This document shows positions 7,304 to 53,586 of a stretch of 64,000 bases of DNA, one piece after another. Under the pieces are notes generated by a model. It was not told the DNA's origin and ran no database searches. It saw only the letters and a program-made list of their open reading frames with translations. Within the stretch, counting starts at the first letter, position 1; every line of letters starts with the position of its first letter. Source of the stretch: Proteromonas lacertae (lineage: Eukaryota). The position numbers were made by a program, and so were the translations under genes. Location: positions 1-64,000 of the forward strand of contig NGBS01001175.1 in NCBI GenBank assembly GCA_002245135.1, given 5' to 3'.

Positions 7304-9305
7304 TAATACCAGATGTAAAACTACCTAAAGTTGTAGATGTGTTTAATAAAATAACAACTGTAAAACATTTTAATGTTCCAACAAATATGGAACGAGTAGG
7401 AGGTATTGTATAATGCAAAATTATTAAAACTGGACTTTTTGCAGGAAAAGCTGATATATTATCAGTTAAACATAATAGAACCGAAGATACTGTTATTGCA
7501 AGAATTAAATATATGTTTGATGTAGATGAAAAGCCTGCTATAATAGAACTTAATACCACTCCAGAAGCAACAACATCTGCTGAAGAATCTATATCTACTA
7601 CTACTAGTGAAACTGAATCCACATCTACAATTCTAACAGAAACAACAACAGCAAATAGACTTCGTGCTGTTTTAAGAGAAGCAGAAACATCATCAACAGA
7701 TACAACAGCATCAACAGAAACTACTGCAACTGAGAGTACAGCTACTACAACAGGATCAACTGATACAACAGCTTCCACTGAAACAACAGAAACTGCGTCA
7801 GCAGCAACTACAGTTGAAGAAACGACAACACCAACTTCAACTCCAGAACCAACAACAACTGCTCCTCCTCCACCACCTCCAACTGTTGAAAGATTTAATG
7901 TACCAGATTTGGAATATAGTGCAATACAACTAAGAAACGATTTAACAACATACATTCCTCAATATGTTCATGTAAACCATAATGTTACAATACCAGCTGA
8001 TGGTAACTACTCTGCAAGTACTTGGGGAGATATGAAGGAAGTACAGTGAGATTAGTGGATGAAGCATCTACTCCAGAACCTACTTTCAAGTATGAAGATA
8101 AGAATGTTACATTTTATTGTAACGAAATAGGTGAAAAAGGAAAGCCTGTAGTTAAACCATATGAAACATATGTCTATACTAAAGGTAATGATATATATTT
8201 TGTATTTAAAGATCAAAAAAACTTACCAAATGATGATGCTAATTGCTATTTAGCTGCTAATCCAAATGGGGACAAATTAGAAATATCAAAATTTGATATT
8301 GCCACAACATTAAAATGTAATAGTAACAATGTATGTAGAGGTTTCACTATTCCAGATCCTAAAGATCCAGAGTTAATTACTGTAAGTGATAATGAAGATG
8401 GAAGTTATACACTTCGAGCAACTGCTAAGACAATTGGTGAAAAAGCAATGCAAGCAATGTTATCTGCATATACTCAAAATGATAATAAATATGTGTTTAT
8501 ACCTATTTCACAAGATGATGATTATTATGGAAATATATTAATGAAGTTAACAGAAGGTGTGAAATTATCAGTTACTATATTCAATGATGGTAAAATTATT
8601 AATACTGTTCCTGCTGTAGTTAGTTCAGTTATTGGTGAAATATTGAATTTACCACATTATATTGTTAATGGAACAGATAATATAACTGCAACTGCTGAAC
8701 CAACAACTACAACAGCAAAACCTAGTAGGCGTATTTTAGTTGAATCATTTGAATCAAATACAATAAATTTACCAACTGTTTATACTTCAGTTCCATTTAC
8801 TCCTTTAGTAGGTTATGAAGACAAAGTAGGTTATACAACAGCTTCAATATCAATTGATTTAACTGAAAGTGATTCAAGAAAAACAATGGAATGTAGTGGT
8901 CAAGGATTATGTAATAGAGAAACAGGTCAATGTGAATGTTATGCTGGTTATGATGGAGATGCTTGTCAAAGATTGAGCTGTCCTAATGACTGTAGTAATC
9001 ATGGTCGATGTGTGAAAGTATATGAATCATTAGAAAATGCTAATGTGAATTTATATAAAGGATTTGGAAATGATGAATATATTTATAGTTGTATTTGTGA
9101 TGCTGGTCATCGTGGAAGTGATTGTAGTTTATTAGAATGTCCATCATCTGTAGATCCAATGAAAGCAACAAATGATAAAGATGATAAATCATCTGAACAA
9201 AGAGATTGTAGTGGTCGAGGTAATTGTGATTATTCAAGTGGTTTATGTAGTTGTTTTGATGGATTTTATGGTGAAGCTTGTCAAAATGCTAATACTTATG
9301 CTTAA
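7304..9305 (+). pseudogene. 5'-truncated mastigoneme-like (Ocm1/Sig1-type) EGF-repeat, Thr-rich surface protein gene
   Basis: C-terminal MECSGQGLCNRETGQCECYAGYDGDACQRLSCPNDCSNHGRC...RDCSGRGNCDYSSGLCSCF. Paralogous to 51096-53586 but lacks the signal peptide and first EGF; in-frame TAA at 7411-7413 and a frameshift near 8040. Confidence 0.75.
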
Positions 9306-9404
9306 ACACTTATAATGAATGAAATGAAATGAATCAAGATTTCTTTATTATATATTATATTATATTATATCTAAAATTGTTTGTATGAGAGTTATTATTC
9401 TTAA

Positions 9405-11039
9405 TTAAGAATCATCCTTTGAAATACTACTTCTAAATTTCTTTTTTATTACTCTATATGCTTTTGTACTATAATCATATTCAAAATAGTATTTATTCAA
9501 TATTTTCACTCCATTTTCTTCACTTTCTTCTTGTTTTAATAAAAATCTTGAATATCTCTCAATTGCTATAAATAAATAATATATTTTATATAATATATTA
9601 AATACGATTACTATTATTGAAAATACTCGATATTTCTTTAGAATAATCTTTAGTCAATGGTTGACCTACATAATTAGATATTGCTTGATATAGAGTAGAA
9701 TAACCAACTTCATTTCGTTTATACTTCTTATATGCTTTTTTACTCATTATTGATACTTGTTTCTCTATTGTATTGGTTAAATCTCCATTTGTTACTGGTT
9801 GTAATTGATTTATTACTGATGTTGAAAAACTACGATGAGATTCTTTATTACTTTTAAAACTTCTAATTGATGGAGTTCGATGTGGTGTTAAATATGAATT
9901 ATTATTATTATTATTATTATTATTATTTTGTAAAGACATCATTGATTTTGTTTCTCTTTTTATTGTATTACCAATTAATGGACTCGATGAAGGAATTGCT
10001 TGTGGTTGTTGTAATTGTGATGGTTGTTGTTGTTGGATTTGTTGTTGGAATTGTTGTTGTTGTTTTGTAAATTCATCTTGTCGATTCTCTAATAATGGTT
10101 TATATTTGGTTTCTAATTCTTTATCCACATTTATTACTCTTTCTGATTTACAGATTTCTTTATCTTTTTTGGTATTTACATCAGCTTCTAATCCTTTCAC
10201 TTCTATTTTTTGATGTTTTACTATTTGAATAAAATAGAAATAATTATAAACATATATCCTCAAATGAGAAAGTATTATTATTATTATCACTTATTATCAC
10301 TTATTATATTCAATATATATAACCAAAATAATATGTGTATATTATATTGAATATAATAAAAGTAAAAATAAATATCAAAATAATTAAATACAAAAAATAG
10401 CCTCTTTTCATCGGATTTATATAAATATATTTATTTATACATATTCTAACTGGATATGGATGTGTATCATCTATAACATTATAATCACAGGGAGTAGTAA
10501 CAGGAGTTATTTCATTTGAATTAATTATCTTATTCAATGATAAATTGTGAATATATAAAGGAGAAATATCAATTGATGGAGATAGTTTAGGGAGGTTCAC
10601 TTTTTACTAAGATATTAACAAATTACATGAATTATACAGTTAGGTTTAAATTCATCATTCAACATTGTTGAGAATATTGAGTCTTCATATTCTTTACATT
10701 TTAGATTAGGTTACTTCATCAATATCATAATATGATGATACTGTGGAACTTAGAAATTGTAACCAACCACTATCTTCTTCAGAAAATGCTCTAGATATAA
10801 AATCGATTATTTGGGGTTTACATTCCTCAATTTTGGCTTTCGTTGAAGAAAATATACTCAAAATTACATTTATCTATATACAATATCCACATAATACATC
10901 ATACTTTTTGAAGTAAGTTAAACTTGTGAAAATAATTCAATAAATCATCTAAATCCTGCTTGGATGGAGATGGTTGTACTTTCCATTCATTATTGTATTT
11001 CTTTGAAAGCGGTATGAACTTATTTGGATCAAAATTCAT
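9405..11039 (-). CDS. NELFA: NELF-A (WHSC2)-like protein, spliced; left copy with two apparent +1 indels
   Basis: Mirror copy of 49374-50996; extra bases near 10590 and 10708 relative to the right copy. Confidence 0.55.
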
Positions 11040-11145
11040 CTCAAGCCTTCAAAAATAGTTTGAATCATCCAAAAATAGTTTTGATTAACCCATTCTTTTA
11101 AAAACAAATTTAAATCAGTATTACATTTATATAAACTATAATCTA

Positions 11146-12240
11146 TTAATTTATTACTTTATCTAACACTATCACACTAAATTCAGCAATCATTTGTTTC
11201 AACAAACTTTCATTATTGTTTAATTCATGATTTTCATATTTCATTATCAATTTCCCCTTTCCATTCGCATTATAATTACTAACTCCAAATAATTTACAGA
11301 AATAATCAATCATCTTACCCACACTGTATTTCTTATCACAATATATTGAATATATTTTATTTTCATATTTTATATTATAATACAATCGATTATTTGGAGG
11401 AATTTTTGAATCTCCTTTAGCTATTCTTTTAAATCTATTTATATAGTATTATATTCAAATATCATATACTTCTGTGATTCTATCATTAATCTATTCTTCT
11501 CATTTCTTAAATATCCACTCAATGTTCCTATTCTTATTTTCACTATTCCTTTATTATCAATATATTTAGATATTTCTTCATCTAATTCTATTTTGGTATT
11601 ATTTATTAGTATTATTTTATCATCAAGTGATAGGTTATGTTTCATACAAAGTGATGATAATATTTCATTAAATTTGGTTGAGAAATTATTTATTATTAAT
11701 TTGTCTGTACAAATACCACTACTTCTAATCATTATTGTATAGAATATAATTAATACATTATTTCTATTTCATTTAAAGTCTTTTCTTTTGAATATTCTTT
11801 ATTTTTATTATCTATAAATTGATTTGACATTGCACATCTATCACAATTATGATCTAATGGATTTCTATAATACATTACTTCATAGTTCAAATTGTTATAT
11901 CAAATACCTGTGAAGTTTACAAAAACTATGATTACATTCACAACAAATGAATTTAGTTAATTCCTTGTTTTTACAACCATTCATTTCACAACTGTATGTT
12001 GATAATTCATCTACTACTTCACTAGTTTCTAAAATTCTTTTCTTATATCTATTATTTTATCGGATTTATTTTATACTCTACACAGTTATGCTTCTCATAT
12101 GACATATGATCTTTACAATACTTCTGGTGACAAAAATCACATTCAAAAGGAAGAAAATCTAAATCAATCTAAATATTAACAACACCTTTCTGATGACATT
12201 CACTAAAACTACAATAACAACCTACTTCGGTTAATTCCAT
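11146..12240 (-). CDS. ZFAND1: AN1-type zinc finger protein ZFAND1/Cuz1-like, spliced (left copy)
   Basis: MELTEVGCYCSFSECHQKDFLPFECDFCHQK.CKDH AN1 finger, a second finger, and a C-terminal AKGDSKIPPNNRLY...SVGKMID ubiquitin-like domain. Confidence 0.85.
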
Positions 12241-12379
12241 TATTTATTTCAAATACAAAAATGAAATGTATTATTCTCTGTATTTTATTGTATTTTGGTT
12301 TATTTCTTTAAATAAATAACATACAAACACATAACAAACAAAAAATCATTAAATTAAACAACAACAACAAAAATAAATA

Positions 12380-13339
12380 TTATATCTCATCAAATACAAA
12401 GCGACCAAAATCACCTTTTCGAAATCTCTCAATAAATCTTCTACTAGCAACACATTCATCACATTTTTCATTCTTACTAATCATCTTCAATACATAATCT
12501 ATATTATCAAGTTCTTCTTCACTTCCACTCAAATGTAACACTTTTCTATATTTATAATTCTTCAACTTATTCAGTTTAAACAATATAAAATCACATAATA
12601 CATCTTCATCCACTATTTTATCAGGAATACATCCAGCTAAACATAAATTCAATCCTACTTCATTATTCATATTATTATTAATTTGTAACTTTGGAATCAT
12701 TATACCTGGACTATCATAGATATATAAATCAGGATTATTATTGATTTTCAATGGATATATATTTCGAGTTAAACCAGGAGTTGCACCAACTTTTGGCACC
12801 TTTTACTATTTAATATATATATAATAAATACATCCTTTAAAATCATTCGAATTCTTTCTTATACAATTTATTATTGAAGATTTACCTACATTTGTTAAAC
12901 CAACTATTAGAAATATTGAACCCACTGTTTTGAATTTAGATGGACATGTCTTAATCATTGTTGGAATTAGTTTATTTATATTTATCTTTTGTTTTACTGA
13001 TATAAACAAACTAGATATATTCTGTTTGGAATAATATTCATTGATTTTAGGCCATTTCGATGAATCAGATAAATCACATTTATTAAATAATATCAATCGT
13101 GGTTTATTGGGAAACAGGGAATCAAAATTATGATTAGAAGTACTCAGTGGAAACTATATTCATTTTCATCTATGAATTATACTCTAGCATCACGAACTTC
13201 CATTAACATATCCACTCCTTTCACTTTCTCAGATAAAAGTCTTAAAGCTTTAGCCATATGACCAGGATACCTATAATTCATTATAACATCACATAATATA
13301 CCAGTTTATTGTGTTATTGTAAAGAAATTCATTTCTCAT
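12380..13339 (-). CDS. MTG1: Mitochondrial ribosome assembly GTPase MTG1/RbgA family, spliced (left copy)
   Basis: WYPGHMAKA, EVRDAR, NKCDL, GLTNVGKSS, GATPGLTR and DSPG motifs in circularly permuted order. Confidence 0.9.
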
Positions 13340-13387
13340 GCTTCTAAAATCAACTTTATTCAATCAAGCCTAATCAAGTTTTTGAAA

Positions 13388-16300
13388 ATGTTTTGTTTGA
13401 AATCTTTCATAGATGAAGTATTATTATCTATATTACCACCTAATTCTAATGTATTTTACTTTATTTATTTTTAATAGATAAAAGAAAGAATAGAAAAGAG
13501 TGAAAATGAGGTAGTTTTAGTTGTTGAACATAAGAATGAGATTAAAATGATAAAAATATTAGATGTTAATGAGATAAAAGAGAAGAAGATATTGAAATTC
13601 TTAGAAAATACCTCCTTATTGTTAGATTGTTGTGCTTCCTTAATATATCCTTTTCAAGTGTTTTTAAACAGTGACTGTGTTATAATATCAAGAAATTATT
13701 TCTCTAGAGACTTAAAAGAGATGATTCAAAGTAAATCTTTGTCTAATGTTGAAATATGTAATGTGATATGTTCTTTATGTGATATTATAATGATCTTAAG
13801 TGAATATGACTTAATGATAGGTAATTTAAAGAGTAGTAATGTAATATATGAAGAAAATGGCAATATAAAGTTATGTGATTTAATCCTAAATGCATTAAGA
13901 AAAGAAGATGAAATGAGAATATATGATATATGCTTCAAAAGTCCAGAAGAGATGAATGGATTAGAATATGATGAAAGAAGTGTAATTTGGTCAATTGGCT
14001 GTATATTATATGAGATGATTTGTAAGAAATTACCATTTAATGAAGATAATAATATGAATAAAACGAAAGAGAATATTGTGAGATGTAAATACAGTTTAGA
14101 TGTAGAATGTGATGATCAAGATGAAAGAAATGATATTCAGAATGTTGAAAGTGAAGAATGAAGATAGAATGAGATTGAAAGAGTTGATAAAAGAAATGAC
14201 AAAAATGAGTGAATTATTGAAAGATGATGAGAATGATTTTATGATATTCGAAGAAAGGAAGAAGTTTTTGTATAAAAATGATAAAAATAGTATTTTACTT
14301 CCAATAATCTATCCATCAGAATACTATCTTGAAAGATTGTTTGATAGAATCTTATAATTATAAACCTAACAAAAGAATATTGTCTATACTATTGATGATG
14401 AAATTATACAAACAAGATAAATCAATTATAGATAGACTGAAGTTTCATATTCATCATCAATGTAAAAATGAAAAGATGTATTGTTTAGATAGAATGATAT
14501 TTATTATTAGTACTGATTGTGAAGATAAAGGAAAAATTGTAATTGATTCAAAACACATTTGTTTCTGTAAAGAAGGGATGGATTATTTCTTCAATATACT
14601 GAAACAGATCAATCCAACAAAACTTCCAATTTGGTATAATATTAGTTATAATTTTGTCTTGTTTAAATAGTTTTTTATATTCCAATAAAATTTTAATCAA
14701 TTATCAAATCTTCAAGAAATTTATATACATTCATGTAATGTAGATTTTAATTTCATAGAATCATTTAGTTAAATCAATTCCATTCATGAAATTAAAATAT
14801 ATAAATCTTTCATGTATATCTTGATCTATTTAAATATATTATCTTGAAATAGACACACCAATTGGTTCAAAAGGATTTAGATTAATTCTTCCATATTTGC
14901 ATTTGTTAATCAACAAAAATAATGAATTGAATCTATGTGGAATGAATTTAAATGATGAATCAATGGTATTATTATCAGAAGAATTATTTAGATATGCAAA
15001 TATAAAAAAAATAGATATTATGCAAAACAAAAATATTCATTCTGTTGGATTAAAAGCTTTATTCTCCAAGTTTCCTATTTCAAAAATAGTATTTGATGTA
15101 AATGGATGTAAAGAATTATTGGTTGATAAAGATGTTCCAGAATTAATCAAATATATTAAAAGTAATAATAATGAATTAAATCTGAGTAATATGGAAATGA
15201 ATGATTATTTTTTTGATATCATTGATTTTTTTAAAATCAGAAGAATTAAGAAAAATAGGTAGATTAAATTTGTGTAGTATTATTTGTTTTTCTTTTTTAT
15301 TATGTAGATAATAAACTTAAGTCTATGAGTGTACAAATACTGATTAACAATTATACTTCATTTTATAAGTTTAAAGAACTTCAATTATGTGGGAATGATA
15401 TAGGAGATGAAGGAATGAAAATATTATCTCCTTATTTACATTTACTAAGAAGTAATGATTGTAAATTGAATTGTTCAAGTATAATAATTGTTGTTATTGT
15501 ATTGAATAGAAATGGGTTTATCTTCAGTTGGAATAAAACATTTGATGAATTATGTAGAAGAAGATCATTATATTGAAATGTTAGAGATTAACAGTATATA
15601 TGATTTATATTATTTTAATAGACAATCCAATAGGAAATAGTGGATTTAAGTCCTTGCTAAACAATTTAAAAATATTGATGGATTATGATAAAATAAATAA
15701 TGATTAATATCTCAATTGATGATGAAAGTATAATTCTGTTGGCAAGTAATCTTTAATCAATTGAAAATTGTGAAACTATAAATCTAAATGGAAACAGTGT
15801 AAGTATGAAAGGATTAGAATCAATATGTTCAAAATCATTAGAAAATGAAAATTATCCATTCATAGAAATGAAATGTTCATCGTGGACAAATGAAGAATTG
15901 GAGTATTATTTAGACTATTGTGTAAAGAAGAGAAGAAAAGATGAATATGATTTTTCCAGTATAGAATGTGATTATTCTATATAATAGATTTTGGTTTGAA
16001 TGATTCTCATATTTCAATAATTAAACAGATAAATTATAGATGGATTGATTTATCGAATAACAAAATTAGTTCTAAAGGATTGAAAGAATTAACTGATTTA
16101 TTACCAAATTCTTCAAAATATATTACTATTCATAATAATGAGATTGGAGATGAAGGAATAGAAATAACTTGTAAATATTTAAATAAGTTTACAAGGCGAA
16201 ATTATAAAAATCACCCATATTTATTGAATTTATCAAGTATTTTATATACATAATGTGAATTTATTATTTGAATAGATGTTGGTATAAGTGAAAAAGGATT

Positions 16301-16577
16301 AAAAGTGTTAATAGAGAGATTAAAAGATTATAAACCAATTAGAAATATTGATATATCAGGAAATGAATTGAATGAAAATGAATTAAGATTGATGAAAGAA
16401 AACAGAAGGATTTTTGAAGATTTGAATGAATTATGAATAACATTAAAAGAGAATATTGATAAATCCGAATTAATATCATTTTTACAAACATTTCCATCTG
16501 TAAGAAGAATAAAAGTGAATGGATTTTCAGAAAAAGAAAAGAATGATTTATCAAAAGAATTCTTTAATGTTGAATAA
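13388..16577 (+). pseudogene. Kinase-like (pseudokinase) plus RNI-type LRR protein, disrupted (left copy)
   Basis: Kinase subdomains IGNLKSSNV (no catalytic Asp), SPEE and IWSIGCILYE, followed by LRRs (NDIGDEGMKIL, NEIGDEGIEI). TAA at 15754 (CAA in the right copy), a 23-nt deletion near 14335 and further frameshifts. Confidence 0.75.
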
Positions 16578-16747
16578 TTAATTTTATTTTTATTATATTT
16601 CATTGTCAATTCTATTCATATGATTGTGATTTTGGAAATTTTCATTTATCCCAAAACTATCCCCAAATTCAATTTTTCATTAACCCAAATCCATTCAAAT
16701 TAAATAGACTTTCCCGCTTTTTAAAAAGCCAAAAATTCTTTTTGCTC

Positions 16748-19700
16748 ATGCTCACTCGTTTTGAGACTACTAGCAATAGAGTGAAGGGTTTGAGTTTCCA
16801 CCCACATCGACCTTGGTTATTAGCCAGTTTACACACAGGAAGTATCCAATTATGGGATTATCAAATGAAAGCTTTAATTGATGTATTTGATGAACATACA
16901 GCTCCAGTCCGTGGTGTTTGTTTTCATCAAAGTCAGCCTTTATTTGTGTCAGGAAGTGATGATTTCAAAATCAAAGTATGGAATTACAAACAACGAAAAT
17001 GTCTATTCACACTTCTTGGTCATTGTGATTATGTGCGAAGTGTAAAGTTTCATCCCGAATATCCTTGGATTTTGAGTAGTTCTGATGATCAAACGATAAG
17101 AATATGGAATTGGCAAAGTAGAGAATGTATATCCGTCCTTACTGGACATAACCACTATGTAATGTATGCTGAATTCCATCCAACAAAGGATTTAGTCTTA
17201 TCAACCTCCTTAGATACAACGATAAGAGTATGGGATGTATCAGCGTTAAGAAAGAAGAAAGTAAATGGAACGCCAGGTGAAGAACAACAAGCAGCTGGTT
17301 TGGGTCGTTTAAATTCCGAATTATTTGGAGTAGTAAAATTTGTTCTTGAAGGTCATGATCGATGTGTAAATTGGGCAAGTTTCCATCCAACTTTAAATTT
17401 AATAGTTTCAGGATCTGATGATAGACAAGTGAAGATATGGCGATATAATGATTCAAAGGCATGGGAAGTTGACACTTTAAGAGGACATACTGGAAATGTA
17501 AGTTGTGTATTATTCCATCCAACAAAGAATCTTATATTTAGTGACAGTGAAGATCATTCTATTCGTATATGGGATGCAACAAAGAGAATTTGTATTCAGA
17601 AGTTTAGTCGACCTCATGATAGATATTGGGTAATGGCAATGCATCCAAGTCAAGATTTAATAGCAGCAGGTCATGATAATGGTTTAATAATATTCAAATT
17701 GAATAGAGAAAGACCAGCTTATTATACCAATGGAAATGAGTTATATTATGTGAAAGATAAATATATTCGATTATATGATTATACTTCCACGAAAGATATT
17801 CCAATATCAAGTATATCTAATAATTCGAATATCCAACCAAAACAATTGATATATAATTCAATGAATCCAAGTGAAAGTAATATAATATTATTTTCCACAG
17901 CTGATGGTGGAACATATGAAATATATCGAACAGGTAAAGGTGAAAATACAAATGGAAGTGAGCCAATAAAAGGTAATGGATTAAGTGCCTTATTTACAGC
18001 TAGAAATCGTATAGCTGTATTAGAAAAAGATCGAAAGATAAGTATAAGAAGTCTTGACAATCAATTAACTAAACCAGTAACACCTCCATCAGGTAATTGG
18101 AGTGAAATATTTGCTGGTGGAATAATTGGTCGAATATTATTAAGAAGTGATGATCGAATAGTATTATTTGATACAACCAGTCGAAAACAATTAGGAAGTG
18201 CAATAGTAAATGGTGTAAAATATGTTCAATGGAATGATAATAATGAATATGTTGCATTAATGAGTAAAGATACAGTATGGATATGTAATAAAGATTTAGA
18301 AATAATCTCTACTTCGAATGAGCCAATGAGTGTAAAAGGTGGTAGTTGGGATAAAAGAGGTGCATTTATATATAGTACATTAAGTCATATAAAATATATA
18401 ATACCAAGTGGAGATAGTGGTGTAATAAGAACAATCGATTTTCCATGTTATGTGACTAAAATTGAAAATAAACATGTATATGTATTAGATAGAGATTGTA
18501 AACCTCGAAGATTAGCGATTGATCCAACTGAATATGAGTTTAAAATAGCATTAGAAAGTCGAAATATTCAAGAAGTATTAAGAATAATAAAGAGTGGTAA
18601 ATTATGTGGTGAAGCAATAATTGAATATTTACATAAGAAAGGATATCCTGAAGTTGCATTAAACTTTGTAAGTGATACATCCTCTCGATTTGATTTAGCG
18701 TTGAAATGTGGTAATATTGAAATAGCAGCTGAATGTGCAATTAGTTTAAATAAAGATGAATATTATGAGAAATTAGCTGATGTAGCTTTATCAAGAGGTA
18801 AAATATCAGTAGCTGAAATGGCTTATCAAAAGACAAAATCATTTGAGAAATTATCATATTTGTATTTATTAACAGGTAATAATGATAAATTACAGAAAAT
18901 GTATAAGATAGCAGAAATGAGACAAAATGTAATGTCCAAATATCTAAATGCATTATTATTAGGAAATGCAGAAGAAAGAGTAAAAATATTAGAAGATGCT
19001 GGTGAGAATAGTTTAGCTTATTTAACTGCTTTAACATACAATTTAAATGATAAATTAGAGAATATTCAAGCTGCTTTAGATACAAATAATATTCCAATAC
19101 CTGTAAAGAGTGAAAATAGTGAAGAATTATATCCACCCAAAACTGTAGAATTAGTAAATGATTGGGTAATTGGAGATAAAAGAAGTAATTATTTTGAATC
19201 TGCTGGAATGCCTCAAGGAAATAATAATAATAATAATGAAGATGATGATGATGATGAAGAAGAAGAAGGAGAAGAAGAAGAAGAAAACAATAAAAATGAT
19301 GAAGATGATTGGAATAAGAATGATGATAATAAAGGAAATGAAGCCAATGAATGGGGTGATGATCTTGAAATACCTGCTGATGAATTACCTGATACAATTG
19401 TAAATACATCAAATAAAAATGAAAAAGATGAATTTAGTATGGAAGAAAGTGGAAATATCGTAAGTGGAACAAGATTACCATCTGCGAAAGATTATTGGAT
19501 TGATAGTTCATCTTTAGCTGCAATTCATATAGCTGGTGGTTCAATAGAAAGTGGAATGAGATTATTAAATCGTCAAATTGGTGTAATTAACTTTGATCCA
19601 TTAAAAGAAGTATTTCGAAGTGTTTATTATGGCAGTGAAATATTTTGTCCTGGTTATTCAATAAGTCCACCAATTGGATATGAATTAATACATGATGGAA

Positions 19701-39996: not shown

Positions 39997-42900
39997 TTAA
40001 TTTAAACTACAAACTAAACCAAGTGTCTGTAAACCAACTTCACTCAAATTACAAGTCAAACATAACTTACCTTTATAACTCACATCATAACTAGATCCAC
40101 AATATGGACATTTCATTATTTCATCACTTTTATTTAATGGTAAAAATTTCTCACAGTTTATTACCCATTGATTTTGACTATTATAATTCAATTCATTTTC
40201 ATTTCTTCCTTGTTTCTCAGATGCTTGTAATACTTTAAGTGTCTATTATATAATAATAATAATATATATTTATATATATACTTTATCTTTTAATTGAGCA
40301 TTATTTTGTTTGTTTATTTCATTGATTTCTAATATTCTTCTCGCAAAATCAGCTGAAGTTATATAATTCTTCAATTTATAAGCACTTGTCATTGCTAAAT
40401 TCAATACTAATAACAAATGATTAGCTTGTAAATTACAATGAGTCATATAACAACTCAATTCTAACCCTCTAACTCCATCATTTGATTGAATACTTCGACG
40501 ATATAATTCTAATCGACAAGCAGTTATATAATCACGGCTTACACTTACTAATTCTTTTACTTCATCACTTTCACTTTTATGACTTACTATTAATAATGGT
40601 AAACTCGTTAAGATCTTTAAAAATGTATTCATACTTTCAGTAAATTTACCCAATTGGAAATATTTATATCCTTCTTTTAATCTCTCAACTAAATGACTGA
40701 ACTTTATTGTACTTGGAGGTACTGTTTTCTTCATCGAATTGACTTTACTTCCATCATGTATTAATTCATATCCAATTGGAGGACTTATTGAATAACCAGG
40801 ACAAAATATTTCACTACCATAATAAACACTTCGAAATACTTCTTTTAATGGATCAAAGTTAATTACACCAATTTGACGATTTAATAATCTCATTCCACTT
40901 TCTATTGAACCACCAGCTATATGAATTGCAGCTAAAGATGAACTATCAATCCAATAATCTTTCGCAGATGGTAATCTTGTTCCACTTACGATATTTCCAC
41001 TTTCTTCCATACTAAATTCATCTTTTTCATTTTTATTTGATGTATTTACAATTGTATCAGGTAATTCATCAGCAGGTATTTCAAGATCATCACCCCATTC
41101 ATTGGCTTCATTTCCTTTATTATCATCATTTTTATTCCAATCATCTTCATCATTTTTATTGTTTTCTTCTTCTCCTTCTCCTTCTCCTTCTTCATCATCA
41201 TCTTCATTATTATTATTATTATTGCTTTGAGGCATTCCAGCAGATTCAAAATAATTACTTCTTTTATCTCCAATTACCCAATCATTTACTAATTCTACAG
41301 TTTTGGGTGGGTATAATTCTTCACTATTTTCACTCTTTACAGGTATTGGAATATTATTTGTATCTAAAGCAGCTTGAATATTCTCTAATTTATCATTTAA
41401 ATTGTATGTTAAAGCAGTTAAATAAGCTAAACTATTCTCACCAGCATCTTCTAATATTTTTACTCTTTCTTCTGCATTTCCTAATAATAATGCATTTAGA
41501 TATTTGGACATTACATTTTGTCTCATTTCTGCTATCTTATACATTTTCTGTAATTTATCATTATTACCTGTTAATAAATATAAATACGATAATTTCTCAA
41601 ATGATTTTGTCTTTTGATAAGCCATTTCAGCTACTGATATTTTACCTCTTGATAAAGCTACATCAGCTAATTTCTCATAATATTCATCTTTATTTAAACT
41701 AATTGCACATTCAGCTGCTATTTCAATATTACCACATTTCAACGCTAAATCAAATCGAGAGGATGTATCACTTACAAAGTTTAATGCAACTTCAGGATAT
41801 CCTTTCTTATGTAAATATTCAATTATTGCTTCACCACATAATTTACCACTCTTTATTATTCTTAATACTTCTTGAATATTTCGACTTTCTAATGCTATTT
41901 TAAACTCGTATTCAGTTGGATCAATCGCTAATCTTCGAGGTTTACAATCTCTATCTAATACATATACATGTTTATTTTCAATTTTAGTCACATAACATGG
42001 AAAATCGATTGTTCTTATTACACCACTATCTCCACTTGGTATTATATATTTTATATGACTTAATGTACTATATATAAATGCACCTCTTTTATCCCAACTA
42101 CCACCTTTTACACTCATTGGTTCATTCGAAGTAGAGATTATTTCTAAATCTTTATTACATATCCATACTGTATCTTTACTCATTAATGCAACATATTCAT
42201 TATTATCATTCCATTGAACATATTTTACACCATTTACTATTGCACTTCCTAATTGTTTTCGACTGGTTGTATCAAATAATACTATTCGATCATCACTTCT
42301 TAATAATATTCGACCAATTATTCCACCAGCAAATATTTCACTCCAATTACCTGATGGAGGTGTTACTGGTTTAGTTAATTGATTGTCAAGACTTCTTATA
42401 CTTATCTTTCGATCTTTTTCTAATACAGCTATACGATTTCTAGCTGTAAATAAGGCACTTAATCCATTACCTTTTATTGGCTCACTTCCATTTGTATTTT
42501 CACCTTTACCTGTTCGATATATTTCATATGTTCCACCATCAGCTGTGGAAAATAATATTATATTACTTTCACTTGGATTCATTGAATTATATATCAATTG
42601 TTTTGGTTGGATATTCGAATTATTAGATATACTTGATATTGGAATATCTTTCGTTGAAGTATAATCATATAATCGAATATATTTATCTTTCACATAATAT
42701 AACTCATTTCCATTGGTATAATAAGCTGGTCTTTCTCTATTCAATTTGAATATTATTAAACCATTATCATGACCTGCTGCTATTAAATCTTGACTTGGAT
42801 GCATTGCCATTACCCAATATCTATCATGAGGTCGACTAAACTTCTGAATACAAATTCTCTTTGTTGCATCCCATATACGAATAGAATGATCTTCACTGTC

Positions 42901-43695
42901 ACTAAATATAAGATTCTTTGTTGGATGGAATAATACACAACTTACATTTCCAGTATGTCCTCTTAATGTATCAACTTCCCACGCCTTTGAATCATTATAT
43001 CGCCATATCTTCACTTGTCTATCATCAGATCCTGAAACTATTAAATTTAAAGTTGGATGGAAACTTGCCCAATTTACACATCGATCATGACCTTCAAGAA
43101 CAAATTTTACTACTCCAAATAATTCGGAATTTAAACGACCCAAACCAGCAGCTTGTTGTTCTTCACCTGGCGTTCCATTTACTTTCTTCTTTCTTAACGC
43201 TGATACATCCCATACTCTTATCGTTGTATCTAAGGAGGTTGATAAGACTAAATCCTTTGTTGGATGGAATTCAGCATACATTACATAGTGGTTATGTCCA
43301 GTAAGAACAGATATACATTCTCTACTTTGCCAATTCCATATTCTTATCGTTTGATCATCAGAACTACTCAAAATCCAAGGATATTCGGGATGAAACTTTA
43401 CACTTCGCACATAATCACAATGACCAAGAAGTGTGAATAAGCATTTTCGTTGTTTGTAATTCCATACTTTGATTTTGAAATCATCACTTCCTGACACAAA
43501 TAAAGGCTGACTTTGATGAAAACAAACACCACGGACTGGAGCTGTATGTTCATCAAATACATCAATTAAAGCTTTCATTTGATAATCCCATAATTGGATA
43601 CTTCCAGTGTGTAAACTGGCTAATAACCAAGGTCGATGTGGGTGGAAACTCAAACCCTTCACTCTATTGCTAGTAGTCTCAAAACGAGTGAGCAT
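39997..43695 (-). CDS. COPA: Coatomer subunit alpha (right copy)
   Basis: Near-identical to 16748-20459; intact reading frame. Confidence 0.97.
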
Positions 43696-43866
43696 GAGCA
43701 AAAAGAATTTTTGGCTTTTTAAAAAGCGGGAAAGTCTATTTAATTTGAATGGATTTGGGTTAATGAAAAATTGAATTTGGGGATAGTTTTGGGATAAATG
43801 AAAATTTCCAAATTCACAATCATATGAATAGAATTGACAATGAAAAATAATAAAAAATATAATTAA

Positions 43867-46800
43867 TTATTCAACATTGAAGAATTCTTTTGATAATTCA
43901 TTCTTTTCTTTTTCTGAAAGTCCATTCACTTTTATTCTTCTTACAGATGGAAATGTTTGTAAAAATGATATTAATTCGGATTTATCAATATTCTCTTTTA
44001 ATGTTATTCATAATTCATTCACATCTTCAAAAATCTCAATTCATTTTCATTCAATTCATTTCCTGATATATCAATATTTCTAATTGGTTTATAATCTTTT
44101 AATCTCTCTATTAACACTTTTAATCCTTTTTCACTCATACCAACATCTATTCAAATAATAAATTCACATTATATATATATAATACTTGATAAATTCAATA
44201 AATATGGGTGATTTTTATAATTTCGCCTTTTAAACTTATTTAAATATTTACAGGTTATTTCTATTCCTTCATCTCCAATCTCATTATTATATATTGAAAT
44301 ATATTTTGAAGAATTTGGTAATAAATCAGTTAATTCTTTCAATCCTTTAGAACTAATTTTGTTATTCGATAAATCAATCCATCGATAATTTATCTGTTTA
44401 ATTATTGAAATATGAGGATCATTCAAACCAAAATCTATTATATAGAATAATCACATTCTATACTGGAAAAATCACATTCATCTTTTCTTCTCTTCTTTAC
44501 ACAATAGTCTAAATAATACTCCAATTCTTCATTTGTCCACGATGAACATTTCATTTCTATGAATGGATAATTTTCATTTTCTAATGATTTTGAACATATT
44601 GATTCTAATCCTTTTATACTTACACTGTTTCCATTTAGATTTATAGTTTCACAATTTTCAATTGATTGAAGATTACTTGCCAACAGAATTATACTTTCAT
44701 CATCAATTGAGATATTAATCATATCTATTTTATCATAATCCATCAATATTTTTAAATTGTTTAGCAAGGACTTAAATCCACTATTTCCTATTGGATTGTC
44801 TATTAAAATAATATAAATCATATATACTGTTAATCTCTAACATTTCAATATGATGATCTTCTTCTACATAATTCATCAAATATTTTAATCCAACTGAAGA
44901 TAAACCCATTTCTATTCAATACAATAACAACAATTATTATACTTGAACAATTCAATTTACAGTCATTACTTCTTAGTAAATGTAAATAAGGAGATAATAT
45001 TTTCATTCCTTCATCTCCTATATCATTCCCACATAATTGAAGTTCTTTAAACTTATAAAATGAAGTATAATTGTTAATCAGTATTTGTACACTCATAGAC
45101 TTAAGTTTATTATCTACATAATAAAAAAGAAAAACAAATAATACTACACAAATTTAATCTACTTATTTTTCTTAATTCTCCTGATTTTAAAAAAATCAAT
45201 GATATCAAAATATAATCATTCATTTCCAAATTACTCAGATTTAATTCATTATTATTACTTTTAATATATTTGATTAATTCTGGAACATCTTTATCAACCA
45301 ATAATTCTTTACATCCATTTATATCAAAAACTATTTTTGAAATAGGAAACTTGGAGAATAAAGCTTTTAATCCAACAGAATGAATATTTTTGTTTTGCAT
45401 AATATCTATTTTTTTTATATTTGCATATCTAAATAATTCTTCTGATAATAATACCATTGATTCATCATTTAAATTCATTCCACATAGATTCAATTCATTA
45501 TTTTTGTTGATTAACAAATGCAAATATGGAAGAATTAATCTAAATCCTTTTGAACCAATTGGTGTGTCTATTTCAAGATAATATATTTAAATAGATCAAG
45601 ATATATATGAAAGATTTATATATTTTAATTTCATGAATGGAATTGATTTAACAAATGATTCTATGAAATTAAAATCTACATTACATGAATGTGTATAAAT
45701 TTCTTGAAGATTTGATAATTGATTAAAATTTTATTGGAATATAAAAAACTATTTAAACAAGATAAAATTATAACTATACAAAATTGAAGTTTTGTTGGAT
45801 TAATCTGTTTCAGTATATTGAAGAAATAATCCATCCCTTCATTACAGAAACAAATATTTTTAGAATGAATTACAATTTTTCCTTTATCTTCACAATCAGT
45901 ATTAATAATAAATATCTTTTCATTTTTACATTGATGATGAATATGAAACTTCAGTCTATCTATAATTGATTTATCTTGTTTGTATAATTTCATCATCAAT
46001 AGTATAGACAGTATTCTTTTGTTAGGTTTATAATTATAAGATTCTATCAAACAATATTTAATCACTTTCCAATTTTTACTTTCAAGATAGTATTCTGATG
46101 GATAGATTATTGGAAGTAAAATACTATTCTTGTGATTTTTATACAAAAACTTCTTCCTTTCTTCGAATATCATAAAATCATTCTCATCGTCTTTCAATAA
46201 TTCACTCATTTTTGTCATTTCTTTTATCAAATCTTTCAATCTCATTCTATCTTCATTATTCACTTTCAACATTCTGAATATCATTTCTTTCATCTTATCA
46301 TCACATTCTACATCTAAACTGTATTTACATCTCACAATATTCTCTTTCGTTTTATTCATATTATTATCTTCATTAAATGGTAATTTCTTAAACATCATCT
46401 CATATAATATACATCCAATTGACCAAATTACACTTCTTTCATCATATTCTAATCCATTCATCTCTTCTGGACTTTTGAAGCATATATCATATATTCTCAT
46501 TTCATCTTTTTTTCTTAATGCATTTAGGTTTAAATCACATAACTTTATATTGCCATTTTCTTCATATATTACATTACTACTCTTTAAATTACCTATCATT
46601 AAGTCATATTCATTTAAGATCATTATAATATCACATAAAGAAGATATCACATTACATATTTCAACACTTGACAAATATTTACTTTGAATTACCTTTTTTG
46701 AGTCTCTAGAGTAATATTCTCGTAATATTATTATACAGTCATTCATTACAAACACTTGAAAAGGATATATTAAGGAAGAACAACAATTCAACAATAAGGA

Positions 46801-47025
46801 GGTATTTTCTAAGAATTTTAATATCTTCTTCTCTTTTATCTCATTAACATCTAATATTTTTATCATTTTAATCTCATTCTTATGTTCAACAACTAAAACT
46901 ACCTCATTTTCACTCTTTTCTTTTTTTTCTTTTATCTATTAAAAATAAATAAAGTAAAATACATTAGAATTAGGTGGTAATATAGATAATAATACCTCAT
47001 CTATGAAAGATTTCAAACAAAACAT
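43867..47025 (-). CDS. Pseudokinase plus RNI-type LRR protein (right copy); kinase part open, last exon apparently disrupted
   Basis: The 396-aa ORF 45676-46866 has degenerate HRD/DFG motifs, followed by LRR exons; a deletion near 44035 relative to the left copy. Confidence 0.7.
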
Positions 47026-47073
47026 TTTCAAAAACTTGATTAGGCTTGATTGAATAAAGTTGATTTTAGAAGC

Positions 47074-48034
47074 ATGAGAAATGAATTTCTTTACAATAAC
47101 ACAATAAACTGGTATATTATGTGATGTTATAATGAATTATAGGTATCCTGGTCATATGGCTAAAGCTTTAAGACTTTTATCTGAGAAAGTGAAAGGAGTG
47201 GATATGTTAATGGAAGTTCGTGATGCTAGAGTATAATTCATAGATGAAAATGAATATAGTTTCCACTGAGTACTTCTAATCATAATTTTGATTCCCTGTT
47301 TCCCAATAAACCACGATTGATATTATTTAATAAATGTGATTTATCTGATTCATCAAAATGGCCTAAAATCAATGAATATTATTCCAAACAGAATATTTCT
47401 AGTTTGTTTATATCAGTAAAACAAAAGATAAATATAAATAAACTAATTCCAACAATGATTAAGACATGTCCATCTAAATTCAAGACAGCAGGTTCAATAT
47501 TTCTAATAGTTGGTTTAACAAATGTAGGTAAATCTTCAATAATAAATTGTATAAGAAAGAATTCGAATGATTTTAAAGGATGTATTTATTATATATATAT
47601 ATTAAATAGTAAAAGGTGCCAAAGTTGGTGCAACTCCTGGTTTAACTCGAAATATATATCCATTGAAAATCAATAATAATCCTGATTTATATATCTATGA
47701 TAGTCCAGGTATAATGATTCCAAAGTTACAAATTAATAATAATATGAATAATGAAGTAGGATTGAATTTATGTTTAGCTGGATGTATTCCTGATAAAATA
47801 GTGGATGAAGATGTATTATGTGATTTTATATTGTTTAAACTGAATAAGTTGAAGAATTATAAATATAGAAAAGTGTTACATTTGAGTGGAAGTGAAGAAG
47901 AACTTGATAATATAGATTATGTATTGAAGATGATTAGTAAGAATGAAAAATGTGATGAATGTGTTGCTAGTAGAAGATTTATTGAGAGATTTCGAAAAGG
48001 TGATTTTGGTCGCTTTGTATTTGATGAGATATAA
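47074..48034 (+). CDS. MTG1: MTG1/RbgA family GTPase (right copy)
   Basis: Same motifs as 12380-13339. Confidence 0.9.
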
Positions 48035-48172
48035 TATTTATTTTTGTTGTTGTTGTTTAATTTAATTATTTTTTGTTTGTTATGTGTTTGTATGTTGTTT
48101 ATTTAAAGAAATAAACAAAATACAATAAAATACAGAGAATAATACATTTCATTTTTGTATTTGATATAAATA

Positions 48173-49267
48173 ATGGAATTAACCGAAGTAGGTTGTTATT
48201 GTAGTTTTAGTGAATGTCATCAGAAAGGTATTGTTAATATTTAGATTGATTTAGATTTTCTTCCTTTTGAATGTGATTTTTGTCACCAGAAGTATTGTAA
48301 AGATCATATATCATATGAGAAGCATAACTGTGCAGAGTATAAAATAAATCTGATAAAATAATAGATATAAGAAAAGAATTTTAGAAACTAGTGAAGTAGT
48401 AGATGAATTATCAACATACAGTTGTGAAATGAATGGTTGTAAAAACAAAGAATTAACGAAATTCATTTGTTGTGAATGTAATCATAGTTTTTGTAAATTT
48501 CACAGGTATTTGATATAACAATTTGAACTATGAAGTAATGTATTATAGAAATCCATTAGATCATAATTGTGATAGATGTGTAATGTCAAATCAATTTATA
48601 GATAATAAAAATAAAGAATATTCAAAAGAAAATACTTTAAATGAAATAGAAATAATGTATTAATTATATTTTATACAATAATGATTAGAAGTAGTGGTAT
48701 TTGTACAGACAAATTAATAATAAATAATTTCTCAACCAAATTTAATGAAATATTATCATCACTTTGTATGAAACATAACTTATCACTTGATGATAAAATA
48801 ATACTAATAAATAATACCAAAATAGAATTAGATGAAGAAATATCTAAATATATTGATAATAAAGGAATAGTGAAAATAAGAATAGGAACATTGAGTGGAT
48901 ATTTAAGAAATGAGAAAAATAGATTAATGATAGAATCACAGAAGTATATGATATTTGAATATTATATAATATAAATAGATTTAAAAGAATAGCTAAAGGA
49001 GATTCAAAAATTCCTCCAAATAATCGATTGTATTATAATATAAAATATGAAAATAAAATATATTCAATATATTGTGATAAGAAATACGGTGTGGGTAAGA
49101 TGATTGATTATTTCTGTAAATTATTTGGAGTTAGTAATTATAATGCGAATGGAAAGGGGAAATTGATAATGAAATATGAAAATCATGAATTAAACAATAA
49201 TGAAAGTTTGTTGAAACAAATGATTCCTGAATTTAGTTTGATAGTGTTAGATAAAGTAATAAATTAA
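48173..49267 (+). CDS. ZFAND1: ZFAND1/Cuz1-like AN1 zinc finger protein (right copy)
   Basis: Same motifs as 11146-12240. Confidence 0.85.
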
Positions 49268-49373
49268 TAGATTATAGTTTGTATTAATGTAATGCTGATT
49301 TAAAATTGTTTTTAAAAGAATGGGTTAATCAAAACTATTTTTGGATGATTCAAACTATTTTTGAAGGCTTGAG

Positions 49374-50996
49374 ATGAATTTTGATCCAAATAAGTTCATA
49401 CCGCTTTCAAAGAAATACAATAATGAATGGAAAGTACAACCATCTCCATCCAAGCAGGATTTAGATGATTTATTGAATTATTTTCACAAGTTTAACTTAC
49501 TTCAAAAAGTATGATGTATATGTGGATATTGTATATAGATAAATGTAATTTTGAGTATATTTTCTTCAACGAAAGCCAAAATTGAGGAATGTAAACCCCA
49601 AATAATCGATTTTATATCTAGAGCATTTTCTGAAGAAGATAGTGGTTGGTTACAGTTTCTTAGTTCCACAGTATCATCATATTATGATATTGATGAAGTA
49701 ACCAATCTAAAGTGTAAAGAATATGAAGAATCAATATTCTCAACAATGTTGAATGATGAATTTAAACCTAACTGTATAATTCATGTAATTTGTTAATGTC
49801 TTAGTAAAAAGTGAACCTCCTAAACTATCTCCATCAATTGATATTTCTCCTTTATATATTCACAATTTATCATTGAATAAGATAATTAATTCAAATGAAA
49901 TAACTCCTGTTACTACTCCCTGTGATTATAATGTTATAGATGATACACATCCATATCCAGTTAGAATATGTATTAATAAATATATTTATATAAATCCGAT
50001 GAAAAGAGGCTATATTTTGTATTTAATTATTTTGATATTTATTTTTACTTTTATTATATTCAATATAATATACACATATTATTTTGGTTATATATATTGA
50101 ATATAATAAGTGATAATAAGTGATAATAATAATAATACTTTCTCATTTGAGGATATATGTTTATAATTATTTCTATTTTATTCAAATAGTAAAACATCAA
50201 AAAATAGAAGTGAAAGGATTAGAAACTGATGTAAATACCAAAAAAGATAAAGAAATCTGTAAATCAGAAAGAGTAATAAATGTGGATAAAGAATTAGAAA
50301 CCAAATATAAACCATTATTAGAGAATAGACAAGATGAATTTACAAAACAACAACAACAATTCCAACAACAAATCCAACAACAACAACCATCACAATTACA
50401 ACAACCACAAGCAATTCCTTCATCAAGTCCATTAATTGGTAATACAATAAAAAGAGAAACAAAATCAATGATGTCTTTACAAAATAATAATAATATTAAT
50501 AATTCATATTTAACACCACATCGAACTTCATCAATTAGAAGTTTTAAAAGTAATAAAGAATCTCATCGTAGTTTTTCAACATCAGTAATAAATCAATTAC
50601 AACCAGTAACAAATGGAGATTTAACCAATACAATAGAGAAACAAGTATCAATAATGAGTAAAAAAGCATATAAGAAGTATAAACGAAATGAAGTTGGTTA
50701 TTCTACTCTATATCAAGCAATATCTAATTATGTAGGTCAACCATTGACTAAAGATTATTCTAAAGAAATATCGAGTATTTTCAATAATAGTAATCGTATT
50801 TAATATATTATATAAAATATATTATTTATTTATAGCAATTGAGAGATATTCAAGATTTTTATTAAAACAAGAAGAAAGTGAAGAAAATGGAGTGAAAATA
50901 TTGAATAAATACTATTTTGAATATGATTATAGTACAAAAGCATATAGAGTAATAAAAAAGAAATTTAGAAGTAGTATTTCAAAAGATGATTCTTAA
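49374..50996 (+). CDS. NELFA: NELF-A (WHSC2)-like protein, spliced (right copy)
   Basis: The N-terminus NEW...LLNYFHKFNLLQKINVILSI...EEDSGWL and the C-terminus YFEYDYSTKAYRVIKKK parallel NELF-A's N-terminal and C-terminal (FEMNY.TG.W...KK) conserved blocks, with a low-complexity middle. Confidence 0.6.
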
Positions 50997-51095
50997 TTAA
51001 GAATAATAACTCTCATACAAACAATTTTAGATATAATATAATATAATATATAATAAAGAAATATTGATTCATTTCATTTCATTCATTATAAGTGT

Positions 51096-53586
51096 TTAAG
51101 CATAAGTATTAGCATTTTGACAAGCTTCACCATAAAATCCATCAAAACAACTACATAAACCACTTGAATAATCACAATTACCTCGACCACTACAATCTCT
51201 TTGTTCAGATGATTTATCATCTTTATCATTTGTTGCTTTCATTGGATCTACAGATGATGGACATTCCAATAAACTACAATCACTTCCACGATGACCAGCA
51301 TCACAAATACAACTATAAATATATTCATCATTTCCAAATCCTTTGTATAAATTCACATTAGCATTTTCTAATGATTCATGTACTTTCACACATCGACCAT
51401 GATTACTACAGTCATTAGGACAACTCAATCTTTGACAAGCATCTCCATCATAACCAGCATAACATTCACATTGACCTGTTTCTCTATTACATAATCCTTG
51501 ACCACTACATTCCATTGTTTTTCTTGAATCACTTTCAGTTAATTCGATTGATATTGAAGCTGTAGAGTAGCCTACTTTGTCTTCATAACCTACTAAAGGA
51601 GTAAATGGAACTGAAGTATAGACAGTTGGTAAATTTATTGTATTTGTTTCTAGTGTTTCACCTAAAATACGAGTATCATGTTCTGTTGTAGCTGTAGTTG
51701 TTGGTTCAGCAGTTGCAGTTATATTATCAGTTCCATTAACAATATAATGTGGTAAATTCAATGTTTCACCAATAACTGAACTAACTGTAGCAGTAGCAGG
51801 AACAGTATTAATAATTTTACCATCATTGAATATAGTGACTGATAATTTCACTCCTTCAGTTAACTTCATTAATATGTTTCCATAATTATCATCATCTTGT
51901 GAAATAGGTATAAACACATATCGATTTTTATTATCTGTATATGCAGATAACATTGCTTGCATTGCTTTTTCACCAATTGTTTTAGCAGTTGCTCGAAGTG
52001 TATAACTTCCATCTTTATTATCACTTACAGTAACAATATCCTCACTTGTATCAGGAATTGTAAAACCTTTACAATCATTATCACTTTTACATTTTAATAT
52101 TGTTTTACCAACTTCTGTTTCAGCTATAGGTACATATACACCTTTTGGATCACTAGCCAAATAACAAACAGCATCTTTACTAGGAGTATCACTTTGATCT
52201 GCAAATACGAAATACACATCATTATTATCACTAGTATATACAAATGTAGTATATGATTTTACTTCAGCTTTTCCTTCTCCAATTTGTTCATTACAATAGA
52301 ATGTTGCTTCTTTATTCTTATATACTAAATCTATTAATACTCTCATTCTTTCTGTTTGAGATGGTGGTTGTGTTGTTGGTTTTTCATCAAAGAAACCCAT
52401 ATCATCCAATATATCTTTCATTCCACTCCATACAATTGCAGAATATCCTTCTTTAGCTGCTGTTCCATTAATAGTTGGTCCATCAGTTGGTAATTCATTA
52501 TTCTTTATTACTTTGTTTATTTCTACTTTTTCTGGAACTAATGTTGTTAAATCTTTTCTTAATTGTATTATAGTGTATTCTAATTCCTGTAAATTGAATG
52601 TCTCTTCTTTTGGTGGTGGTGGAGGTGGAGCAGTTGTTGGTGGTTCTGTTGTTGGTTCTGTTGTTGTGGTTGATGGTGTTGTTGTGGCTTCTTCACCTGT
52701 TACTGTTGTAGCTGCTTCTGATGTAGTTGTTGCTTCAGCTGTTGTAGCTTCAGCGGTTGTTGTTGCTGCGGTAGTTGCAGCTTCTGCTGCATCCACCCTT
52801 CTAAAACACGAAGTCTTTTTACTGCTTTTACTTCTCCTTCTTCCTTTGTTGTTGTTGCTTCAACTGTTGTTGTAGCTTCAGTTGCTGCTGTAGTTTTGCC
52901 TTCAGTTGCTGCTGCTGATGTTGATTCTGTAGGATTTGCTGTTGTTGGCTCTTCAGGTTTTTCAGTTAATTCAAACATAAATCTGATTGTAGCATATAAT
53001 GCTGTTTCATTTTCAATTTTAACTGACATTATATCAGCTTTTCCTGCAGTCTTTCCTGTTTTGGAACTTCTACACATCACAGTACCTCCTGCACTTTCCA
53101 TTCCAGGTGGAATAATTGGATTTGAAATATTCCATACTCTATCACTAGTTTTATTAACTAATGATGGGAAAACAGTTGTTACTTCAGGAGTAGTTTCTGT
53201 AGCTGCTGCGGTTGTTCCTGCTTCTGTGGCTTTAGTTGTGGTTTCTTCTGCTAAAAATCTATAACTCTTTTCACTAAGAGCTCTTCTACAAGGTGCACTA
53301 TTACATCCTTCATATCCTTCTTTATCTGTTTTTACTGTTCCTTGAAATGTACCAAAAGGCTTTCCAAGAGGACATGTTCCTAAACAGTTATAAATAAAAA
53401 TATACGGTGGGAGCAATCTGCTCCTGTATATGTAAAAACTTCAAAAGCACCTCCATTCAATGCTAAGCCAGTTTGCTTATTACATTCACAGATTCCATTA
53501 TCACCACATTTGCCGTGGCCACTACAATTATTGGGACAAGCAGCTAATAAATAAGCAAAAAATAGAGTCAGACAAAAATGCTTCAT
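51096..53586 (-). CDS. Full-length mastigoneme-like (Ocm1/Sig1-type) EGF protein with Thr-rich inserts; 26-nt intron at 53380-53405; one apparent frameshift near 52797
   Basis: Signal peptide MKHFCLTLFFAYLLA, then CPNNCSGHGKC...YTGADCSHRTCPLG, and three C-terminal EGF-like modules, matching the stramenopile tubular hair protein layout. Confidence 0.78.

Follow-up and report, generated by a model that had tools for sequence, protein, structure and literature searches.

A 12.5 kb inverted duplication with ends in multicopy gene families on a Proteromonas lacertae contig

The stretch of interest is a 64,000 nucleotide (nt) piece of the Proteromonas lacertae genome (GenBank assembly GCA_002245135.1, contig NGBS01001175.1, positions 1–64,000, forward strand), which was analysed over its full length and is referred to here as the window. 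It contains a large inverted duplication: 12.5 kb of sequence mirrored around an 18.7 kb spacer. Self-comparison by BLAST returned a single long inverted alignment, 8109–20881 with 52304–39569 (12,822 columns, 96.7% identity), together with weaker inverted pieces at 7821–7951/52671–52541 (78%) and 7387–7537/53101–52954 (70%). The near-identical arrangement consists of (i) a left arm at 8377–20881 (+ strand), (ii) a single-copy spacer of 18,687 bp at 20882–39568, and (iii) a right arm at 39569–52033 (− strand). Near identity begins at ~8377/52033; differences per 50 bp number 11–22 upstream of 8400 and 0–10 beyond it. Substitutions affect 209 of 12,424 aligned sites across 8377–20881 (98.3% identity) and 157 of 11,520 sites (1.36%) across the core at 9060–20660 (98.6% identity), and the arms differ further by multi-base indels of 2–23 bp. 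Copies that are longer than 1 kb, more than 90% identical and inverted in the assembled sequence have the form of a segmental duplication. The inverted duplication, its dimensions and the mixture of substitutions and multi-base indels had all been proposed in a first-pass annotation of the sequence, and each is borne out here. GC content lies between 20 and 37% per kb, modelled introns are 26–46 nt long, and the standard genetic code yields long open frames.

Six genes are mirrored, the number that the first-pass annotation had given. From the outer to the inner end these are the 3' half of a mastigoneme-like gene, a gene labelled NELFA, a ZFAND1-like gene, a YlqF/MTG1-like GTPase gene (hereafter MTG1), a pseudokinase-LRR gene (K1) and COPA, the gene for coatomer alpha; a seventh mirrored piece, a kinase-family stub, lies at the inner end. 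The 'NELFA'-labelled gene occupies 9598–11039 (−) on the left, its frame broken by single-base insertions at 10590 and 10708, and 49374–50803 (+) on the right, with three modelled exons open. The label itself finds no support: no NELF match was obtained in Pfam for open reading frames (ORFs) or for any of the four right-arm single exons, no NELF family match was seen for single exons of the gene at E values up to 3 (unspliced query), and an Atlas search with the last exon gave no usable match. The ZFAND1-like gene (left, 11146–12240, −; right, 48173–49267, +, six exons, open frame) matches PF25327 (zf-AN1), and MTG1 (left, 12380–13281, −, with a single-base insertion at 12791; right, 47132–48034, +, three exons, open frame) matches TIGR03596. 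COPA is intact in both arms: 1221 amino acids (aa) at 16748–20459 (+) on the left, with one intron at 20168–20213, and 1219 aa at 39997–43695 (−) on the right. No exact match to the two unspliced COPA frames was found in the protein collection. In a COPA tree built by a quick method only (24 rows: the two arms and 22 of 120 listed matches), the arms and two relatives join Blastocystis sp. with a Shimodaira–Hasegawa-like approximate likelihood ratio test (SH-aLRT) value of 98, a weak placement for which long-branch attraction is flagged. One relative is 94% identical in COPA. Taken with the flagellar protein DRC7, encoded in the right flank, the placement tentatively points to a flagellated stramenopile akin to Blastocystis, of the Proteromonas kind.

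K1 lies at 13388–16573 (+) in the left arm and at 43867–47025 (−) in the right. The left copy carries a 23-bp deletion at 14335, a TAA stop codon at 15754 and several single-base insertions, and is likely a pseudogene; the right copy has deletions of 21 bp and 22 bp relative to the left. The right copy presumably keeps a kinase fold; its catalytic loop reads GNLKSSN, and DFG is replaced by DLN. At 14475/45917, the 21-bp deletion removes an apparent splice donor and leaves 12 in-frame bases, and the matching acceptor is also changed; loss of an intron by partial deletion is possible in this copy. A search for the kinase family at E 1e-25 retrieved one relative among 1057 candidates.

The outer end of the duplication falls within the mastigoneme-like genes. 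The left gene (7387–9305, +) is composite: its 5' half is an old paralog and its 3' half lies within the arm. It contains an in-frame TAA at 7411–7413 and a frameshift near 8040, and no counterpart of the signal-peptide/first-EGF exon was found for it. The right gene (51096–53586, −) is full length and encodes a hydrophobic N-terminus, an N-terminal EGF domain, Thr-rich linkers and C-terminal EGF repeats; its single frameshift, near 52790, is absent from relatives. EGF matches stand at both ends of the protein, and the signal peptide and the absence of a membrane segment were judged by eye only, against the description of the stramenopile tubular mastigoneme protein in the available text of PMC12223298. 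With the middle region as query, three relatives (P0127–P0129) were found among 4869 candidates, with no named mastigoneme among them. Two points of interest emerge from comparing the window copies with each other and with these relatives. Firstly, similarity fades in steps: protein identity between the two copies is, from 5' to 3', 43–50%, 51%, 90% and 99%. The stratum next to the near-identical part (8377–9060, +) shows a proportion of synonymous differences per synonymous site (pS) of 10.8% (16/148.5 sites), compared with 2.8% in the arm (p 9e-6). Secondly, the topology switches along the gene. Informative sites (alignment columns from 145 on only) were sorted by whether they group right with P0127, left with P0127 or right with left. 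The 5' part gives 18/3/7 and 19/4/10, the middle 14/6/28 and the 3' part 5/5/92. The topology switch and the steps in identity together indicate that the two mastigoneme-like paralogs predate the split from P0127 and that they have undergone more than one exchange of 3' sequence. The outer breakpoint thus lies between two old members of a multicopy family, and the fade inside the gene is as the first-pass annotation described it, with a slightly shorter reach (7387/53101 by BLAST rather than ~7304/~53170). The relatives P0127–P0129 are themselves segmental mosaics of one another: 28 pattern changes were counted against a shuffled mean of 65, and none of 10,000 shuffles gave a number as low. 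Variation among these three is concentrated in the middle region.

The inner boundary, 20881/39569, lies exactly where it had been placed previously, inside a kinase-LRR remnant. On the left this remnant (K2, 20671–21335, +) has a kinase start joined to the last LRR, is 72–79% like K1 and spans the boundary, running on beyond 20881 with an internal deletion. In the right arm, the kinase-family stub (39569–39790, −) ends abruptly at 39569, 78 bp past the stop codon (39488–39490) of an SMC-family gene in the spacer, which we take from its motif to be SMC5. Nothing kinase-like was found beyond 39569, where the best matches are low-complexity ones with E values of 0.014 or worse. Whether the junction has family members on both sides is read from two opposed signs: six differences between the arms fall in the last 40 bp of shared sequence, compared with six in the preceding 182 bp, but no family sequence follows 39569. 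Because the differences concentrate in those last 40 bp, a resident paralog stub is moderately favoured as what would have been the second landing site. The nine bases that follow the right junction were considered as sequence from further down the kinase; alignment led us to drop this.

The differences between the arms are biological: they are those of two sequences, not of one sequence plus read noise. The evidence is the synonymous excess in COPA, in which 22.5 synonymous and 3.5 non-synonymous differences were counted over 722 and 2935 sites (binomial p 2e-12; pS 3.1%; ratio of non-synonymous to synonymous divergence, dN/dS, 0.04). The three amino acid changes all lie in an acidic linker, with the derived state in the right copy as judged against three full-length relatives. 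MTG1, ZFAND1 and three exons of the 'NELFA'-labelled gene together show 13 synonymous and 13 non-synonymous differences (dN/dS 0.23; p 3e-4); in MTG1 alone dN/dS is 0.06 (four synonymous changes, one non-synonymous), and in K1 it is near 0.56. All modelled right-arm exons are open. Single-base insertions in the left arm mostly lengthen a homopolymer and are likely consensus errors, since left MTG1 has one and yet shows only one non-synonymous change against four synonymous; true gene loss was rejected for MTG1 on the same counts.

The first-pass annotation had further suggested that the arms could keep homogenising COPA, MTG1, ZFAND1 and the 'NELFA'-labelled gene. This is not what the divergence pattern indicates. 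Across six gene sets pS is 2.1, 2.6, 2.5, 2.4, 2.8 and 3.1% (pooled, 42.5/1504 sites, 2.8%), with no heterogeneity (chi-squared 0.50, 5 degrees of freedom, p 0.99); the outer transition and the K1 kinase exon, being outliers, were omitted from this test. The 23 synonymous codons of COPA are unclustered (p 0.43, 0.59), and in none of three segments is the longest identical run beyond chance expectation (p 0.14, 0.08, 0.31). Over the whole core the longest run gives p 0.045, and it lies in constrained COPA. Neither a mosaic of recently homogenised tracts nor an arm identity above 99% was found in the arms (flat pS; 98.6%). Flat synonymous divergence implies that the arms split once, the housekeeping genes having undergone no patchy homogenising; it fits a single split, and also one complete homogenising sweep at the time of the split.

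Short exchanges were seen only in two families, the mastigoneme-like and the kinase. In K1, an exchange patch at 46663–46752 (−; left equivalent 13661–13750) differs between the arms at 18 of 90 bp, and K2 is closer to the right copy (9 differences) than to the left (18). Over 13385–13800, K2 matches the right copy at 16 of 27 differing sites, the left at nine and neither at two. The outgroup P0148 sides partly with left K1 and partly with right K1 across the patch residues, so the direction of exchange is only suggested. A second, tiny patch at 16125–16131/44297–44291 holds four K1 differences in 7 bp, all K2-like in the right copy. Flipping of the spacer, also raised by the first-pass annotation, is possible in principle: perfect runs between the arms reach 533 bp, a length sufficient for crossover.

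Beyond the outer transition the two sides part company. No translated homology was found between the outer flanks past the mastigoneme-like genes, nor between the two halves of the spacer; the neighbours of the arms differ on both sides. Outside the repeat on the left, adjoining the truncated mastigoneme-like gene, is a virus-like block (2118–6941, +). It carries a predicted double-jelly-roll capsid gene at 2885–4414 (18 relatives; no Pfam or NCBIfam match), an A32-like packaging ATPase gene at 4468–5229 (Pox_A32, E 4.7e-4, 20.1 bits, under the 22.8 cut-off) and three further, unassigned ORFs, among which those at 5279–5956 and 5931–6941 open with a similar short stretch. The capsid model built from a 16-row alignment including 15 relatives has a predicted local distance difference test (pLDDT) score of 73 and a predicted template modelling (pTM) score of 0.77; the single-sequence model has a pLDDT of 30. 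Foldseek matched the former to the capsids of PBCV-1 (E 6e-12) and mavirus (2e-10), and to those of an iridovirus and Sputnik (range to 8e-10), so that on predicted structure the protein has the double jelly roll of a major capsid protein. Six pattern matches to the capsid gene were obtained in viral contigs, none of them confirmed. No integrase, polymerase, terminal inverted repeats or insertion ends were seen in 1–8400, and the element may extend past the left end of the window. Endogenous Polinton-like viruses and virophages are common in protist genomes, according to the available text of PMC10120064, and the block is likely one of these; it may have caused the truncation of the left mastigoneme-like gene. 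At 1–1750 (−), low-complexity acidic frames overlap and shift (1075–1503, 504–1214, 1–487), and may together represent a single gene of the block that is broken or was mis-read. A 150-bp stretch of raised GC content (up to 45% per 40 bp) lies at 7030–7180, between the block and the mastigoneme-like gene.

The spacer holds the 3' part of K2, an LRR gene, two 14-3-3 genes, a Thr/Ser-rich tandem-repeat gene, a PH-domain gene and the SMC5-like gene. The 14-3-3 genes (25803–27502, −) are tandem and highly divergent, with 38% mutual identity over 173 aa. The tandem-repeat gene (30327–34454, +) is a 1375-codon open frame containing a mucin-like, Thr/Ser/Asp-rich tandem array of 2.8 kb (30554–33334). 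Such an array is the obvious spot for an assembly join within the spacer, yet the frame is unbroken, and so no break is visible there. In the right flank (54600–61680) are an APC4-like gene, a gene for the flagellar protein DRC7 and a divergent Hsp70 gene, each single copy in the window.

What could have produced this arrangement? The reading we prefer, and to which we give about an even chance, is that of a genuine segmental duplication, which would have arisen a single time when ectopic homologous copying ran between two inverted pairs of paralogs. Both pairs would have been in place beforehand, the mastigoneme-like genes forming the outer one and the kinase-family stubs the inner. After a break close to one of them, repair would have used the other locus, through long-tract conversion or through break-induced replication, and the template would have switched a second time at the kinase stub; the single-copy genes in between would have been copied along. 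The donor was possibly the homologous chromosome, which would explain the allele-like differences between the arms; alternatively, two rearranged homologues crossing over within the spacer would yield the same chromosome. After the event, the housekeeping genes would have diverged without detectable arm-to-arm conversion. Ectopic recombination or conversion between family members had been put forward in the first-pass annotation, and that part agrees with the finding that both ends lie in families that are multicopy within the window; the ongoing homogenisation attached to it does not. Several results weigh against a real duplication of this kind. Selection on COPA is as strict as between alleles: ~46 non-synonymous differences would be expected had one lineage been free since the split, and 3.5 are observed, so both lineages have been constrained throughout, as retained duplicates or as alleles. 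COPA protein identity between the arms, 99.75%, is inside the spread of cluster members in two relatives (99.8–99.9% and 99.3%). Single-base insertions are unevenly spread, ten in the left arm (10590–15699) to one in the right (sign test p 0.012), a bias suggesting that the left consensus was built on thin coverage. Related loci in metagenome contigs yielded pattern matches only (102 for COPA, 74 for the 3' half of the mastigoneme-like gene), none of them confirmed. Finally, the signal at the inner edge is weak and post hoc, with P 0.001 at 3% and 0.03 when adjacent changes are counted once.

Much of this evidence would be equally at home were the arms alleles, a serious rival, if one we rate as appreciably less probable than the duplication. 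In a diploid, one homologue would have the block to the left of the spacer and the other to the right, an arrangement that two inversions could bring about (at the mastigoneme-like pair and at the kinase pair), and the assembler would have switched haplotype within the spacer, each chromosome having one copy. Flat pS (2.8%), dN/dS of 0.04 in COPA and 0.06 in MTG1, a COPA protein difference inside the range of relatives' variants and the one-sided insertion excess give the arms the divergence and selection of an allelic duplication; the homeologous ends are accounted for as well, and all eight Blastocystis isolates are diploid by k-mer signal in the available text of PMC10690189. With this pattern of selection, the mis-joined haplotypes that the first-pass annotation had named as its alternative gain weight. 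Plain alleles, however, would share neighbours, and those of the arms differ; two rearrangements plus a haplotype switch are required, and a single heterozygous inversion does not produce the junction at 39569. It appears improbable that this is an old palindrome in the style of mammalian sex chromosomes, with recurrent conversion between the arms keeping them alike and a spacer that flips. Such a palindrome would suit the gradation of divergence at the two edges (with four or more strata in the mastigoneme-like pair, the oldest predating the split from the relative), the two intact COPA copies and the perfect runs of up to 533 bp, which permit crossovers. Against it stand the lack of a mosaic of young and old tracts in the arms (pS 2.1–3.1% in all six gene sets), identical runs that are chance-like in three segments and, in the core, explained by constraint on COPA, an identity of 98.6% that is under the >99% of conversion-maintained palindromes, and the different lesions in the two K1 copies. 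There is similarly little probability, in our view, that the event was one-sided: invasion between the mastigoneme-like paralogs would have led to left-to-right copying, which ended at 39569 non-homologously or by microhomology, the kinase stub being incidental. K2 does extend beyond the boundary in the left copy, the right copy is truncated with nothing kinase-like following, and error-prone synthesis at the junction could also yield the excess in the last 40 bp; that excess, however, includes paired within-codon changes that keep family-like residues, a feature more in keeping with a resident paralog than with point mutation. Lastly, it is conceivable, at a long shot, that the mirrored mastigoneme-like pair is a long-lived variation system, in which a silent truncated copy beside an endogenous virus and an intact expressed copy would exchange sequence repeatedly from their conserved 3' ends and so reshuffle a surface-hair protein of this gut flagellate; the 12.5 kb duplication would then be the latest exchange, having overrun the gene and captured essential neighbours.

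The duplication is of an ordinary kind, not a new kind of element. No published description of the locus was found in the main texts of the openly accessible literature. Haplotype switching in long-read assemblies gives rise to false duplications, the simple ones sharing flanks. The present case resembles these in its allele-like divergence and in the uneven consensus quality between copies, but the arms share neither flank, so that a false duplication would need structural heterozygosity. Other comparisons are drawn here from the available text of the works cited. Mammalian X/Y palindromes under arm-to-arm conversion (PMC3723533, PMC8981503) and Caenorhabditis inverted repeats (PMC1803023) likewise have big inverted arms that carry genes on either side of unique sequence. 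In those systems arm identity is >99% to 99.9% and conversion is shown, whereas here identity is 98.6% and the single-copy genes give no conversion signal. At human PLP1/MECP2, homeology drives template switching at inverted low-copy repeats (PMC4352052). Shared with our case, as we read it, are junctions that lie in inverted repeats, switch points with homology or homeology and the potential for the spacer to invert. The human system differs in that de novo duplication-triplications arise there from near-identical repeats, whereas here the seed paralogs are 50–80% alike and have yielded a plain mirror of two copies.

The nearest parallel in content comes from Blastocystis ST7, in which 320 duplicated blocks make up 39% of the assembly, with uniform identity (99% coding, 97.8% intron/intergenic) and an origin that is left open (PMC3129679; such blocks are mentioned also in PMC5608401). 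Like those blocks, the duplication described here is multi-gene and of uniform high identity (core 98.6%, flat across genes). The ST7 blocks are reported to share a scaffold or stand in tandem only rarely (PMC3129679), whereas the copies here are 18.7 kb apart, mirrored and end in paralog pairs; the word 'inverted' is absent from the main text of that report. If the duplication is real, it is a clear single example of multicopy families seeding near-identical blocks of the Blastocystis type, with both ends readable. If it instead reflects a haplotype switch, it shows how such blocks get overcounted in diploid, rearranged protist genomes. Either outcome bears on the origin of the Blastocystis duplicated blocks.

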